62,301 nucleotides of DNA, taken from sequence record SRR20825019_2768; one strand, written 5' to 3'. Every line of letters starts with the position of its first letter. Within the stretch, counting starts at the first letter, position 1. The notes under the pieces were generated by a model. The model searched no databases and was not told where the DNA came from. It was given only the letters and a program-made list of their open reading frames with translations. This document shows, piece by piece, positions 43,506-48,463 of this stretch. A program made the position numbers and the translations under genes.

Positions 43506-43596
43506 AAATGACGAATTTATATGGGGTATTTATATACCGCTTTTTTAGATGGTTGTTTTTATTGGATAATTTCGACATGCACATGTAAAAAACCGT

Positions 43597-43624
43597 TTGA
43601 CAGTTTGCTAAATATGCCTATATT
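43597..43624 (+). promoter_or_regulatory. sigma70 promoter of rplM-rpsI
   Basis: TTGACA-N16-TATATT with AT-rich upstream DNA and a GC-rich discriminator (CCGCGCC). Confidence 0.7.
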
Positions 43625-43727
43625 CCGCGCCAATGTGATGACGGCGTCTGTTTTGCCGCATCCGTTTAGTTTTAACACTGGCCTGCGGCTCACAAAAGCC
43701 AAAGGCGGTAACCGAGGCATAATTGCG

Positions 43728-44186
43728 ATGAAAACGTATTCCGCAAAACCTTCGGAGATCGAAAAGAAATGGCTGATCGTTGACGCAGAGGACGTAGTTC
43801 TTGGTCGTCTGGCTCAGGCCATCGCTGTTGTTCTCCGTGGGAAGCACAAGCCCACGTACACTCCGCACATGGATTGCGGTGACAACGTGATTGTTATCAA
43901 CGCTGAAAAAGTGAAGCTGACCGGCCGGAAAATGGCTGACAAGGTTTACTACCGTCACACAGGTCACCCTGGTGGTATTAAGTCTGCAACTGCAGGCGAG
44001 ATCCTCAGTGGTCGTTTCCCTGAGCGTGTGGTTGAGAAAGCGATTGAGCGTATGATCCCTAAGGGTCCGCTTGGCCGTCAGCAAATGCGCAATCTTCGCG
44101 TTTATGCAGGCGGTGATCACCCGCACACTGCACAGGACCCTGAAGTTCTGGACGTTGGCGCAATGAACCCGAAAAATAAGAGGTAA
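43728..44186 (+). CDS. rplM: 50S ribosomal protein L13
   Basis: [38 protein letters not shown]; the ORF-track start is too far upstream. Confidence 0.98.
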
Positions 44187-44191
44187 GCGAC

Positions 44192-44671
44192 ATGGCCGAC
44201 CTTCAAGACCTTAAAGAAATCACCGGTGCGGCTGACGCTGCTGTGGTGGAAGCTGCTGAAGAGCGCAAGCCTGTCGTTGACGATCAGGGCCGTTCTTACG
44301 CAACTGGTAAGCGTAAAGACGCTGTTGCCCGCGTTTGGGTGAAGCCGGGTTCCGGTAAAGTGACCGTAAATGGTCGCGACCAGGAAGCTTACTTCGCACG
44401 TCCAACACTGCGTCTCATCGTGAACCAGCCTTTCCAAGTTGCTGGCCGCGAAAACCAGTATGACGTTATTGCAACTGTTAAAGGCGGCGGCCTCTCTGGC
44501 CAGGCTGGTGCGGTAAAGCACGGTATTTCCAAAGCGCTTCAGCTTGCTGAGCCTGAGCTTCGCGGCTCGCTCAAAGCTGCTGGCTTCCTGACCCGCGATA
44601 GCCGGGTTGTTGAACGGAAGAAATACGGCCGCGCGAAAGCTCGTCGTTCGTTCCAGTTCTCCAAGCGTTAA
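44192..44671 (+). CDS. rpsI: 30S ribosomal protein S9
   Basis: [34 protein letters not shown]. Confidence 0.98.
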
Positions 44672-45526: not shown

Positions 45527-45609
45527 CGGGTATTTACAGGCGGGTTTTGGTCCGCCTTTACATTCCCCGATTTAGTACTTTCGTTGACTGCGGCACATAA
45601 GTGTGATGA

Positions 45610-46203
45610 ATGTCAGCGATTGTGTCAAAAGTCGGGGTGATGGTAATGGATATTGGTGTCCCAATCAGGGAACTAGGCAAGGTTGAATGCGGCGCCCTCA
45701 TTGAGCGTGTTAACACATTGGACCCACAAGTGTGGGACCTGTGCGATATCCGCCAAAAGAAGTACGATATTCATCGCCATACCAAATCCATCGTCATGAT
45801 ATTTTCAGAGGGCTGGCCGGACATCAGGCTGGCGCGTTATCCCGGTTGGGACGTGCTTGCCAAGTTTGCCATGCCAATTATCGAGAAGGTTGTCGCTGCA
45901 AACTATAAGCCTGGCGGCGCTATCATCCGGGCGATGGTCGCTAATCTTGTTAAAGGCGGCATGATTGAGGAACACTATGATGCAGCGCCGTCTTTTGCTG
46001 TGGGGCACCGCATCCATGTACCGCTTTGTACCAACGCTGACGTCACGTTCACCATCGACGGAGACCCGTATAAACTGGAAGTTGGAAAAGCGTATGAGCT
46101 CAACAATCTTGTCGACCACGGTGTCGTGAACGAGGGAGTTGAAGACAGGTATCACCTCATCTTCGATTATGTTCCCCCTCAACCCAAGATGACAAAGGTC
46201 TGA
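45610..46203 (+). CDS. Asp/Asn beta-hydroxylase-like Fe(II)/2OG oxygenase (start uncertain, possibly 45646)
   Basis: HYD (HxD), RIHVPL, ELNN...H.V.N.G..DR.HLIFD. Confidence 0.85.
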   Translation: MSAIVSKVGVMVMDIGVPIRELGKVECGALIERVNTLDPQVWDLCDIRQKKYDIHRHTKSIVMIFSEGWPDIRLARYPGWDVLAKFAMPIIEKVVAANYKPGGAIIRAMVANLVKGGMIEEHYDAAPSFAVGHRIHVPLCTNADVTFTIDGDPYKLEVGKAYELNNLVDHGVVNEGVEDRYHLIFDYVPPQPKMTKV

Positions 46204-46212
46204 TCTTTACCT

Positions 46213-46809
46213 CTAGTGGTCGTGTCCGCAATCCGGGCCATGCACATGACCATGATCATGGTGATGATGGTCATGACCGCATCCGGGGCCATGTACGTGG
46301 TTCTTCATCTGTTTAATGTATTTCTGCATCTTCTTGAGCAGTAGGTCGCGCTTCATCTTGGATAGGTGATCGAGGTATGTTTTGCCGTCAAGGTAATCGA
46401 TCTCGTGCTGCAAAACGGTGGCGAGCCAACCATCCGCATCAATTTCGTGCCGCGTGCCTTCCATATCCAGATACGCGAGCCGGATGGCATCAGGCCGGGT
46501 AATCTCGGCCGAGATGCCGGGAAAGCTGAGCGACGCTTCTTCATGTGTTGAGGTCGCGTCTGACCGCCACAGGATTTCAGGGTTAATGCAAACCATTGGC
46601 TCACGGCGGCCTTCAGGCTGCAGGTCAAGAACCACAATACGCTTCAAAAGCCCCACCATGTTCGCGGCGATGCCAATACCCCGGTTTTCATACATGATAT
46701 CCAGCATTTGGGCCGTGAGCACCCGAATGTCGTCATTTACGTCCTCAACAGGCAGGGCTTTCTGCCGGAACACTGGGTTTGGGGCGGTCACTAGGCTTAG
46801 CGTGGTCAT
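46213..46809 (-). CDS. Peptide deformylase-like protein with degenerate active site and His/Cys-rich tail
   Basis: PDF fold motifs read GIGIAANM, EASLS, QHEIDYLDG; tail HVHGPGCGHDHHHHDHGHVHGPDCGHDH. Confidence 0.9.
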   Translation of the reverse strand: MTTLSLVTAPNPVFRQKALPVEDVNDDIRVLTAQMLDIMYENRGIGIAANMVGLLKRIVVLDLQPEGRREPMVCINPEILWRSDATSTHEEASLSFPGISAEITRPDAIRLAYLDMEGTRHEIDADGWLATVLQHEIDYLDGKTYLDHLSKMKRDLLLKKMQKYIKQMKNHVHGPGCGHDHHHHDHGHVHGPDCGHDH

Positions 46810-47004
46810 ATCAAAGATACCTCAAAAAATTATCGGCTAGAAATACCTTCATCATCATAAAAATGCCAGCGCCGTTTTACGTACTTCACGTGCGGTAACA
46901 GGCCGTTCTGCGATACGTGGCATTTTGTGATCACATTTTTGTTGCGTGCTGCTATGTCTCGGCGCAGATTTCACTTCTGATTCTCGAATGAAGAGGAGCG
47001 CGCC

Positions 47005-47367
47005 ATGAGTGCCAAAGGTGTTTTGAACTTCCGTGATACCGACCCAGAGTTGGAAAATGGCCCCGTTGCAGCTGAAAAGCTGATCTCCGGTAGTCCGCAA
47101 CAACAGACCGAAAACGTTTACACCAGCAAGTCGGAACGCTTTTTTTCCGGCTATTGGTCCTCCACCAAGGGGAAATGGCATGTAGACTATGCGGACGAAG
47201 AAGAATTTTGCCACTTGCTAGAAGGCGAGGTGGAGCTCGTTGATGCCGACGGCCGCGCAAGCCGCTTCAAAGCGGGTGACAGGTTTACCATTTCTGCGGG
47301 TTTCAAAGGCACCTGGGAGACAATCAAGGATTGCCGAAAGCTCTATGTCATTGCATTAATGGGATAA
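47005..47367 (+). CDS. Cupin, DUF861/EutQ-like
   Basis: GAGGAG RBS, G.W.ST.GKW, EFCHLLEG, GFKGTWET, RKLYV. Confidence 0.88.
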   Translation: MSAKGVLNFRDTDPELENGPVAAEKLISGSPQQQTENVYTSKSERFFSGYWSSTKGKWHVDYADEEEFCHLLEGEVELVDADGRASRFKAGDRFTISAGFKGTWETIKDCRKLYVIALMG

Positions 47368-47431
47368 TAATGACAATCGCCGAGGGTTGTGAAATACTCC
47401 CCACCGGAATTCAAAGATAAGGAGAGCAGGC

Positions 47432-47857
47432 ATGAAACGGCTGATAGTTGCGTTGATGTTGGGTATCACTTTACCGGCAGTGGCCGCGTTCGCGGATGAT
47501 GGCACGCCGTCAACAGCGGGCACAGAAGTCTACATCATCAGCCCGATGGATGGCGAAAGCCTGAAAAGCCCAATCACTGTTCGTTTTGGCTTGAAGGGCA
47601 TGGGCATCGCACCTGCTGGGGTAGAGAAAGAAGGCACTGGCCATCACCATTTGATTATCGATACCGACCTGCCGCCGCTTGATGAAAATATCCCGATGGA
47701 TGACCAGCATATCCACTTTGGTGGCGGCCAGACGGAAACAACGATAGAGCTGAGCCCCGGTAAACATACGCTTCAATTGCTTCTGGGCGATCAAAACCAC
47801 ATCCCCCACAGCCCTGCGGTGACATCCAAAAAAATCACCATCACGATCGTGGAATAA
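47432..47857 (+). CDS. Exported DUF4399 protein
   Basis: Signal peptide, VYIISP.DG, V.FGL, GHHHLIID, HIHFGGGQTE, PGKHTLQL, HIPH. Confidence 0.88.
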   Translation: MKRLIVALMLGITLPAVAAFADDGTPSTAGTEVYIISPMDGESLKSPITVRFGLKGMGIAPAGVEKEGTGHHHLIIDTDLPPLDENIPMDDQHIHFGGGQTETTIELSPGKHTLQLLLGDQNHIPHSPAVTSKKITITIVE

Positions 47858-47866
47858 TCACGGTCG

Positions 47867-48463
47867 TTAGGTGCCAGGCTCTGTCCTTTCTGTGAACTTG
47901 GTGGGTGTGACGGGAGTCCAGTGAACCGGGCCGTCGGGTTTCACCGGCAAAGGTTTGTTCGGATGGCTTGCGAAGGTTTTACTGCGCATATAACAAAGTA
48001 CTTCAGCCTCCTCGGAGCCACCACATTGCCGCTTATGCAAATCCTCAACTACGGGCGAGACAATTTGCCAGTCTCCGCTTTGATTGACCCGATCGGCAAA
48101 TGTTTCGACCTCAGCGTTAAGGTTTGCGTATTGCTGCTCATAGTCTGTGTTCAGATAGGCAACAACCAACCTGTTGGCATCACCTGAGGGCATGTCATTG
48201 AGGATGTATTGGATATGCGTTTGTATCGCTGCGGCGCAGGCAAGCCATACCTCAACACTTTCAACAAAGCGGGGGACGGTGCGCCTTAACGGTTTTAGGG
48301 GCGAGCTGCCGCGTACCTTTGCTGGTGCGGTTGGCGTTTGTCCACAAAGCTCAACGAGACCCGGGATTTTGGCTAACGCTGCATCCTTATTGCTGAAGGA
48401 GCTGAATCCGTAAGCTGGGCTTGAGAGGAGAGATAAGGCCATAGCCGCCGCAATCAGTTTCAT
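47867..48463 (-). CDS. Secreted hypothetical protein with 4 Cys
   Basis: GGGAG RBS, signal peptide MKLIAAAMALSLLSSPAYG; fills the intergenic gap. Confidence 0.65.
   Translation of the reverse strand: MKLIAAAMALSLLSSPAYGFSSFSNKDAALAKIPGLVELCGQTPTAPAKVRGSSPLKPLRRTVPRFVESVEVWLACAAAIQTHIQYILNDMPSGDANRLVVAYLNTDYEQQYANLNAEVETFADRVNQSGDWQIVSPVVEDLHKRQCGGSEEAEVLCYMRSKTFASHPNKPLPVKPDGPVHWTPVTPTKFTERTEPGT

Follow-up and report, generated by a model that had tools for sequence, protein, structure and literature searches.

A conserved peptide deformylase-like protein with replaced catalytic residues and a Cys/His tail, a candidate metal-carrying factor at the ribosome exit

The stretch of DNA analysed here (sequence record SRR20825019_2768, 62,301 nucleotides, hereafter the window) encodes a 198-residue protein that has the fold of peptide deformylase (PDF) and has lost most of the residues with which PDFs hold their metal. 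We suggest that this deformylase-like protein is a pseudo-deformylase of the ribosome exit that carries a zinc-type metal site, a reading to which its sequence features give an even chance. In the host, a marine bacterium, this sister of the true deformylase probably does a job other than deformylation where new proteins leave the ribosome. The family itself is already named in databases; the new element is a near-universal Cys/His metal clasp that zinc-handling proteins and trigger factor also carry.

The deformylase-like protein matches Pfam PF01327 over residues 5-154 (E value 5.2e-48; 163 bits against a cut-off of 22.8) and TIGR00079 with 136.9 bits (cut-off 103.95), it also passes the cut-off of NF001159, and solved PDFs in the PDB align with it at E values of about 1e-37. 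Modelled with AlphaFold2 from 60 relatives, the protein reaches a mean predicted local distance difference test score (pLDDT) of 88.8, with 10-residue block means of 92-98 across residues 11-160, and superimposes on E. coli PDF structures with template-modelling scores of 0.95-0.96 and root-mean-square deviations of 1.3-1.5 Å. Within this fold, the three catalytic motifs, which we read again in the DNA and aligned to solved PDFs, are all altered (Table 1). As described in text passages of bioRxiv 10.1101/2022.04.20.488877, the residues nearest the metal in E. coli PDF are Gln50, Cys90, His132, and His136. These four correspond to M51, S93, H135, and Y139 of the deformylase-like protein, while Gly89 corresponds to A92 and the catalytic Glu133 to E136; three of the four metal-proximal residues are replaced (Gln50 by Met, Cys90 by Ser, and His136 by Tyr), and His132 and Glu133 are retained. 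Changing Cys90 or His136 in E. coli PDF abolishes both metal binding and activity. In PDFs the substrate cleft is lined by the motif I and motif II strands, and these are kept in the deformylase-like family. By fold and sequence the protein belongs with the PDFs, and motifs I, II, and III all depart from the PDF pattern; because these three defining catalytic features are missing, it should not be filed as a deformylase. Judging from these residues, its core has likely lost standard deformylation.

The protein also retains a basic C-terminal helix, the counterpart of the helix with which type 1B PDFs dock on the ribosome, so that the C-terminal α-helix by which type 1B is recognised is present in the predicted model. 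The block-mean pLDDT values over residues 141-170, the helix region, are 97, 97, and 86. Specifically, K153, R154, D155, L157, K159, K160, and M161 are at least 90% conserved in the family and K163 is invariant; in a comparison of 60 family members with 50 canonical PDFs, S150, K153, and K163 are common to both groups, and the helix is better conserved in the deformylase-like family than in the canonical PDFs. The C-terminal helix of E. coli PDF occupies a ribosomal groove at uL22, according to passages of PMC12690207 and bioRxiv 10.1101/2022.04.20.488877. Since the docking helix is conserved, docking at the same ribosomal site is to be expected. The sequence-only reading of this DNA had described three PDF motifs altered at essential positions, an otherwise intact open reading frame (ORF), and a retained basic helix. 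The first statement stands in the DNA and in the PDB alignments (GIGIAANM, EASLS, and HEIDY), the second in an uninterrupted frame of 198 codons from ATG to stop, and the third in the modelled helix 151-169 and its conservation.

The replacements are a family trait. A word-indexed search gave 482 relatives, the best 120 of which were aligned with the query to give 121 sequences. Met occupies the Gln50 column in 120 of the 121, Ser the Cys90 column in 119, and Tyr the His136 column in 120; the motif III His and Glu are each present in all 121, the Gly89 position is Ala in 115, and P0104, whose motifs are fully canonical, is the single exception. In the comparison of 60 family members with 50 canonical PDFs, Met/Ser/Tyr in the family and Gln/Cys/His in the canonical PDFs each reach a frequency of 1.00, and the fixed differences are Q51M, G92A, C93S, and H139Y. 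Additionally, the second conserved Cys (C129 in E. coli) is Val in 98% of the family, and N50, G67, F96, G98, I99, D155, and M161 are conserved in the family only. The 60 family sequences, drawn from several orders, have a mean column identity of 54%. Against the closest orthologue (92% identical), the core shows a nonsynonymous rate (dN) of 0.045 and a synonymous rate (dS) of 0.50, a ratio of 0.089, compared with 0.033 for the canonical def gene of the same genome pair. Six of 21 genome pairs allowed dS to be calculated for the deformylase-like gene (dN/dS 0.089-0.286, with 0.108-0.286 in the five pairs besides the closest); in the remaining 15 it was saturated. As judged by these ratios, the family is under purifying selection.

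We scanned one genome per species with the DNA patterns of QHExDYLxG and GxGxxANM, which matched 235 stretches, 209 of them encoding a relative. Carriers among the best 80 of these 209 loci include Kordiimonas, several Rickettsia, Megaera, Bandiella, and Midichloriaceae, as well as Sneathiella, Emcibacter, Hwanghaeella, Parvibaculaceae, and Rhodobiaceae. Within the host's genus, 16 of 18 other genomes hold the gene, both genomes without it being 76% complete, and in the rest of the order it occurs in one other family only (2 genomes). For the wider class, we ran a family profile against 300 evenly sampled further genomes of Alphaproteobacteria, each with a completeness of 90% or more; this profile fails to tell the family apart from canonical Def, for which matches reach an E value of 2e-61. 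Five of the 300 were clear carriers (E ≤1e-69) and two small genomes were borderline (about 1e-63), so the family is patchy; the sample included the unpublished genomes G236 and G062, which gave canonical-level matches only. Four of the five clear carriers have a second match at E ≤1e-50. The sequences suggest a mainly alphaproteobacterial family derived from type 1B peptide deformylase.

The host genome (a single contig of 4.18 Mb) contains two PF01327 matches, and the second is a canonical def copy directly followed by fmt (Table 1), the latter read as such from its own sequence. Host Def and the deformylase-like protein are 41% identical, and a complex prediction for host Def with residues 1-172 of the deformylase-like protein scored 0.14 against a mark of 0.32, which speaks neither for nor against such a complex. 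All 16 Kordiimonas carriers hold a second, canonical-level PDF match, as do the carriers in the rest of the order, and the five named carriers from other genera each have 2-4 PF01327 matches, counted at the level of the Pfam family. The sequence-only reading had supposed a conserved family rather than decay, had pointed to degenerate def-like proteins in Rickettsia, and had named low dN/dS and a canonical def-fmt pair elsewhere in the genome as checks. The triad fixed in 119-120 of 121 sequences, the Rickettsia loci of the pattern scan, the ratio of 0.089 against the closest relative, and the def-fmt pair at L001 agree with it on these points.

The most informative part of the deformylase-like protein is its 29-residue Cys/His tail, which was missed in that reading, where the peptide ended at K169; the sequence after K169 is NHVHGPGCGHDHHHHDHGHVHGPDCGHDH. 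The tail is built on a clasp with the consensus H-x-(H/C)-x3-4-C-x-H and begins two residues past the end of the 19-residue helix. Only 3 of 120 family members have no Cys/His tail; in the other 117 it takes the form H-x-H-x3-C (55), C-x4-C (58), or C-x3-C (4). The two main forms align, H-V-H-G-P-x-C-x-H with H-x-C-G-D-P-x-C-x-H, so that one clasp column alternates between His and Cys, while C177, the Cys further along, is conserved in 90% or more of the sequences; this is how metal ligands behave and points to a set of four ligands. Most family members have one clasp of 9-12 residues, which is duplicated in the window's protein.

We searched for the module among longer relatives of the query and then with the copy from trigger factor, the latter search giving 93 listed matches. 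It occurs in Zn/Cd-exporting P-type ATPases, CobW/COG0523 GTPases, DUF1980 proteins, tetratricopeptide repeat (TPR) proteins, and trigger factors (Table 1), and all 95 proteins P0277-P0371 fit the looser motif H[VIL]H[GDSTA]xxCxH. In the host genome, the strict motif H[VI]HG..C.H is found in the deformylase-like gene only; another, looser pattern gives 183 mostly meaningless matches there. No paper was found for the motif string of the clasp. Two HVHGPDC(G/D)H clasps are carried by Sphingomonadaceae trigger factors of about 520-560 residues, namely P0285, P0286, P0287, P0314, P0346, P0354, and P0361 with many metagenomic relatives; in these proteins the clasps follow the C-terminal domain and precede a long Lys/Ala/Pro-rich extension. 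As read from sequence, the HVHGPxCxH tail also accompanies several kinds of altered PDF core. Specifically, P0175, P0242, P0149, and P0178 combine the tail with other degenerate motifs (EDDLS/QHLS; EDCLS/AHLL; EGSPS or EGSPC/QHQ, for QHE in the family).

Single-chain tandem PDFs of 316-704 residues join a degenerate PDF-like N-domain to a canonical PDF C-domain, the canonical domain standing where the Cys/His tail would be. In these N-domains Gln50 has become Met, Cys90 either Ser or Asn, and His136 either Tyr or an aliphatic residue. P0122 and P0131 are of the Met/Ser/Tyr type, and P0125 (from a Rickettsiales metagenome-assembled genome), P0128, and P0130 have other degenerate forms, while at least nine further fusions carry Met/Asn/x and look like a group from a separate, G+C-rich lineage. 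The tandem PDFs also include P0160, P0168, P0180, P0186, P0191, P0195, P0197, P0205, P0212, and P0264. The abundance of fusions is low, 1-3 contigs per cluster. In the AlphaFold2 model of P0122 the domains are well folded (pLDDT 91.2), and the predicted template-modelling score (pTM) of 0.59 gives no confident packing between them. We built an IQ-TREE phylogeny (LG+G4) of 90 rows, comprising all non-canonical sequences, 22 randomly taken from 108 stand-alone canonical ones, the canonical domains of proteins longer than 300 residues, and P0104. This tree unites the 28 stand-alone family rows in a single group that contains no canonical PDF (Shimodaira-Hasegawa-like approximate likelihood ratio test, SH-aLRT, 88), and it places the Met/Asn/x domains and the P0131 N-domain next to the C-terminal domains of their own chains (SH-aLRT 87 and 99). 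FastTree instead places the Met/Asn/x fusion domains inside the deformylase-like family (SH-like support 95), and the approximately unbiased test does not reject one shared origin for all Met/Ser/Tyr rows (p 0.41). With the two trees in disagreement and that test result, we claim neither common nor convergent origin for the fusion domains.

The reading that we favour, a pseudo-deformylase with a zinc-type site at the ribosome exit, would work as follows. Lacking Cys90 and His136, the core would no longer hold a catalytic Fe or Zn ion in the manner of PDFs, and normal deformylation would not take place. The protein would dock by its C-terminal helix at the PDF site on the large ribosomal subunit, and its metal site would thereby be placed at the mouth of the exit tunnel; because the clasp starts two residues after the helix, it would lie on the ribosome surface beside the exit. 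Zinc or a similar divalent metal is indicated by the sharing of the module with zinc pumps and COG0523 chaperones. Such a site might donate metal to nascent chains, to Def, or to methionine aminopeptidase, might sense metal, or might be an extra anchor. The sequence-only reading had offered an fMet-peptide reader, a PDF competitor, or a metal-responsive factor at the tunnel exit, and the last now seems the best founded of the three, on account of the clasp that it had not taken into view. We are doubtful of the more specific proposal of a ribosome-docked metal handler, that is, an ex-deformylase adaptor that supplies or senses metal for nascent chains or processing enzymes at the exit; if it were true, sphingomonads would have reached the same end through an identical clasp on trigger factor, and bacteria would have a way of inserting metals into proteins during translation.

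Several observations weigh against the favoured reading. Gln134, His135, and Glu136 are invariant in the family, which one would not expect of a purely passive scaffold, and the former active site may still carry out some chemistry. The type 3 PDFs of T. brucei keep their metal ligands. Accessory PDFs with altered motifs can be active, and those T. brucei enzymes are the example given in passages of PMC12690207. In the metal-free AlphaFold2 model the tail is disordered from residue 172 (pLDDT <50), as expected without metal. The Met/Ser/Tyr triad is kept in three family members and in fused forms that have no tail, so the function of the core is independent of the clasp; conversely, P0104, a canonical PDF that groups with canonical PDFs, carries the same tail, which makes the clasp a portable add-on rather than the signature of a dead core. 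Finally, neither a neighbouring gene (72 loci) nor an upstream box (71 loci) is conserved that would tie the gene to zinc or iron regulation.

Some of these points suit a protein that is still an enzyme, which we consider unlikely. It would be either a metal-free hydrolase acting through Ser93, His135, Tyr139, and Glu136, or an enzyme holding another metal through His135, Tyr139, Met51, and ligands of the tail; formyl-Met peptides or some other small amide would be the substrates, and a metal-free site would escape oxidation of the Fe-PDF type. The invariant Gln134/His135/Glu136 together with the fixed replacements (Met in 120, Ser in 119, and Tyr in 120 of the 121 sequences) give the site a designed look, the motif I and II strands are conserved, and the family-specific invariant residues F96, G98, and I99 cluster beside motif II. 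Replacement of C90 by Ser and of C129 by Val would remove oxidation-sensitive points, the tail supplies both kinds of ligand lost from the core, Cys and His, and activity is reported for some PDFs with altered motifs (passages of PMC12690207). However, a clasp that begins two residues past a 19-residue helix seems unlikely to reach the old pocket of the same molecule, the triad is kept in tail-less members and fusions, and the clasp is autonomous in unrelated proteins. The loss of metal binding and activity in the Cys90 and His136 mutants of E. coli PDF also speaks against an enzyme, and we know of no precedent for a PDF fold acting as a Ser/His hydrolase.

Distinctly unlikely in our view is a non-catalytic partner of true Def, one that pairs with its active sister, whether at the ribosome or away from it, to regulate it, stabilise it, or load it with metal. 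The natural tandem fusions of a degenerate with a canonical domain, in which the canonical domain replaces the Cys/His tail, would suit such a partnership, as would the co-occurrence of the family with another PDF-family match in every genome checked. But the fusions are rare, at 1-3 contigs per cluster; the Met/Asn/x and P0131 N-domains group with their own C-domains, may be separate duplications, and would then have little bearing on the stand-alone family; domain packing in P0122 is not confident at a pTM of 0.59; and def never adjoins the deformylase-like gene in 72 loci. That the core is a relic and the protein mainly buffers or stores metal in the cytoplasm by means of the His/Cys tail, playing no part at the ribosome, is very improbable: the tail is His-rich and duplicated in the window's lineage and the module is repeated many times in Zn/Cd-handling proteins, whereas the single clasp of 9-12 residues in most members is too small for storage, the core and above all the helix are strongly constrained (54% mean column identity, dN/dS 0.089), and tail-less members persist. 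For an incipient pseudogene with strain-private substitutions, nothing speaks beyond the altered motifs themselves; its chance is close to nil and we rejected it, given the intact frame, the triad in 119-120 of 121 relatives across several orders, and the dN/dS of 0.089.

Compared with type 1B Def, such as E. coli Def (PDB 1LRU, 2W3T) and the product of the host def, the family has the same fold, motif framework, helix, and His132/Glu133. It differs in Met/Ser/Tyr for Gln50/Cys90/His136, in Ala for Gly89 and Val for Cys129, in a gene that is not beside fmt, and in the clasp that follows the helix. The UniRef 'Peptide deformylase-like' proteins of Kordiimonas lacus, K. pumila, and Candidatus Trichorickettsia mobilis (53-73% identity, same triad and tail type) are members of the same family with no structural difference, except that the clasp is duplicated in the window's protein; their name records merely that conserved residues are missing. 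The DEFL entries of Rickettsia in Swiss-Prot are, we take it, the same family. NCBI labels the same proteins plainly as 'peptide deformylase', all 60 members tested match generic models only, with no dedicated NCBIfam model, and the ESM Atlas gave only generic PDF clusters for the deformylase-like protein. No paper on the function of the family was found; the one trace is an entry in a table of a phylogenomics paper on Rickettsia.

Accessory PDFs were surveyed in 2025 (PMC12690207); text passages of that survey state that about one fifth of PDFs lack the updated motifs and that the Staphylococcus aureus and Streptococcus pneumoniae copies of type 3 are inactive under laboratory conditions. These text passages contain no mention of Rickettsia or of the deformylase-like family, sequences of which the supplements may list. 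The type 3 PDFs described there resemble the deformylase-like protein in being a second, motif-altered copy beside an active one; theirs are changed in motifs I and II, whereas the deformylase-like family also loses the motif III ligand and keeps the type 1B helix, and the passages report no Cys/His clasp for them. The deformylase-like protein belongs to a different lineage and falls below the cut-offs of NF011189 (72.1 bits against 232) and NF006670 (66.7 against 162). These two are presumably models of type 3 PDFs, NF011189 of the staphylococcal ones.

The closest parallels to the tail lie outside the deformylases. COG0523 GTPases of the ZigA/ZagA/ZNG1 type likewise have a short flexible His/Cys segment on a folded domain by which it is carried to a client, and two such proteins carry the identical HVHGPxCxH module in their linker; the deformylase-like protein is without a GTPase domain, and its carrier domain is a degenerate processing enzyme. 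SlyD also has a metal-binding His/Cys tail. The eukaryotic COG0523 protein ZNG1 delivers zinc to methionine aminopeptidase 1 (METAP1), a ribosome-associated enzyme whose step follows deformylation (as given in PMC11672702 and PMC10642216), and by analogy this pair would be a precedent of the right kind for metal handling at the ribosome exit. For bacteria, co-translational metal insertion is listed as an untested model in passages of a 2024 review (PMC11672702). The trigger factors of Sphingomonadaceae are themselves ribosome-exit factors with an HVHGPDCGH-(His/Asp)-HVHGPDCDH insert, nearly the same arrangement as the window's tail; unlike the deformylase-like protein, they have an unrelated fold and the Lys/Ala/Pro-rich extension after the clasp. 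Trigger factor docks at uL23, a ribosomal site different from that of PDF. No paper was found on the clasp-bearing Sphingomonadaceae trigger factors.

PDF is an antibiotic target and a textbook enzyme of the ribosome exit, and a conserved branch of it without assigned function is present in the genomes of at least 209 species, including Rickettsia and its relatives. If the core is dead, deformylase gene counts and inhibitor-target predictions in such bacteria are off by one, and a clasp that held zinc at the mouth of the tunnel would offer a simple, testable handle on bacterial co-translational metal insertion. The recurring Met/Ser/Tyr is also a clean case for studying a metalloenzyme site that is converted rather than simply lost.

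Table 1 Features of the deformylase-like gene, the canonical def-fmt pair of the host, and proteins that share the clasp module.
Feature	Position	Strand	Remarks
Whole ORF, deformylase-like protein	46213..46809	(-)	198 residues, ATG start, stop 46213-46215
GAGG, likely ribosome-binding site	46820..46823	(-)	last base 10 nt ahead of the ATG at 46809
Motif I, GIGIAANM (G44-M51)	46657..46680	(-)	canonical GIGLAASQ; metal-adjacent Gln to Met
Motif II, EASLS (E91-S95)	46525..46539	(-)	GAA GCG TCG CTC AGC; canonical EGCLS; ligand Cys to Ser, preceding Gly to Ala
Motif III, HEIDY (H135-Y139)	46393..46407	(-)	CAC GAG ATC GAT TAC; canonical HEMDH; second ligand His to Tyr
Basic C-terminal helix, residues 151-169	46303..46359	(-)	counterpart of the type 1B PDF ribosome-docking helix
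Cys/His tail, residues 170-198	46216..46302	(-)	two HVHGP(G/D)CGH copies joined by a His/Asp run
Clasp copy 1, H171-H179	46273-46299	(-)	
Clasp copy 2, H188-H196	46222-46248	(-)	
Canonical def copy	L001:1477-2010		motifs GIGLAAIQ, EGCLS, HEIDH
fmt	L001:2023-2961		312-residue ORF, 13 bases after canonical def
Four Zn/Cd-exporting P-type ATPases (P0276, P0299, P0345, P0358)	N-terminus		HVHGPxCxH, 3-9 tandem copies
Two CobW/COG0523 GTPases (P0301, P0341)	interdomain linker		HVHGPxCxH, 2 and 4 copies
Three DUF1980 proteins			clasp module present
Two TPR proteins			clasp module present
Sphingomonadaceae trigger factors	about residues 450-475		two copies; nearly all of the 93 listed matches
One Planctomycetota trigger factor	about residues 450-475		two clasp copies

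The gene surroundings of the family were read at 80 loci, 72 of which were recognised (L015, L024, L052, L061, L073, L075, L077, and L084 were missed). Across these 72 loci, neighbouring genes are kept within genera only; examples are a laccase-like PF02578 gene in Rickettsia, ATP/ADP translocase, MFS, FlhA, SecA, and YebC, as well as PPK2, photolyase, M3 peptidase, and RNase D, and none of the 72 has def next to the deformylase-like gene. The alignment of 10 Kordiimonas-type upstream regions shows no conserved motif, the enriched 7- and 8-mers in 71 upstream regions are A/T-rich words only, and neither a zinc-regulator-type core (TGTTAT...ATAACA) nor an iron-regulator-type core occurs in any of the 71. 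A perfect 10-bp palindrome, TGTGATCACA, lies at 46928-46937 in the divergent intergenic region between the deformylase-like gene and the cupin_3 gene; of the 71 regions only that of the window itself has it, and it is absent upstream of the orthologues. The core TGTGA..TCACA also occurs in 1 of the 71, again that of the window. No promoter-like site emerged ahead of the deformylase-like gene in a sigma-70 scan. The GAGG ahead of the ATG is, by its sequence and position, likely the ribosome-binding site. No RNA data set is listed for positions 45600-47900. Of four runs compared whose RNA label is a guess, one (X1) has two short contigs on the deformylase-like gene, at 46321-46532 and 46624-46834, with zero mismatches. 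The 21 letters past the contig end at 46834 are, we presume, the reverse complement of the SMART template-switch oligonucleotide; if so, this end would be a cDNA 5' end 25 nt upstream of the ATG, which, from one contig at a depth of 2, is no evidence of expression.

In the window, the neighbours of the deformylase-like gene, which does not adjoin fmt, encode a cupin-type hydroxylase, a cupin_3 protein, and a DUF4399 protein. The 197-residue cupin (45610-46203) is convergent with the deformylase-like gene and ends 10 bases before the stop codon of that gene; it matches the Asp/Asn beta-hydroxylase family PF05118 (E 6.6e-11) and also gives a weak LpxO-like match. On the other side, the cupin_3 gene (47005-47367) is divergent from the deformylase-like gene. 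Further away, positions 43521-44671 hold the rplM-rpsI pair (Pfam L13 and S9); the true start of rplM is probably further downstream, because the L13 domain begins at residue 82 of the listed 221-residue ORF. The DUF4399 gene (47432-47857; Pfam E 6.5e-40) includes a GTGHHHL stretch. Within it (window 47405-47857), contigs from two runs other than X1 end at 47834, followed by 14-16 A's, 23 nt before the stop codon, and this A-run may mark a cDNA end with a poly(A) tail or one that stems from internal priming.

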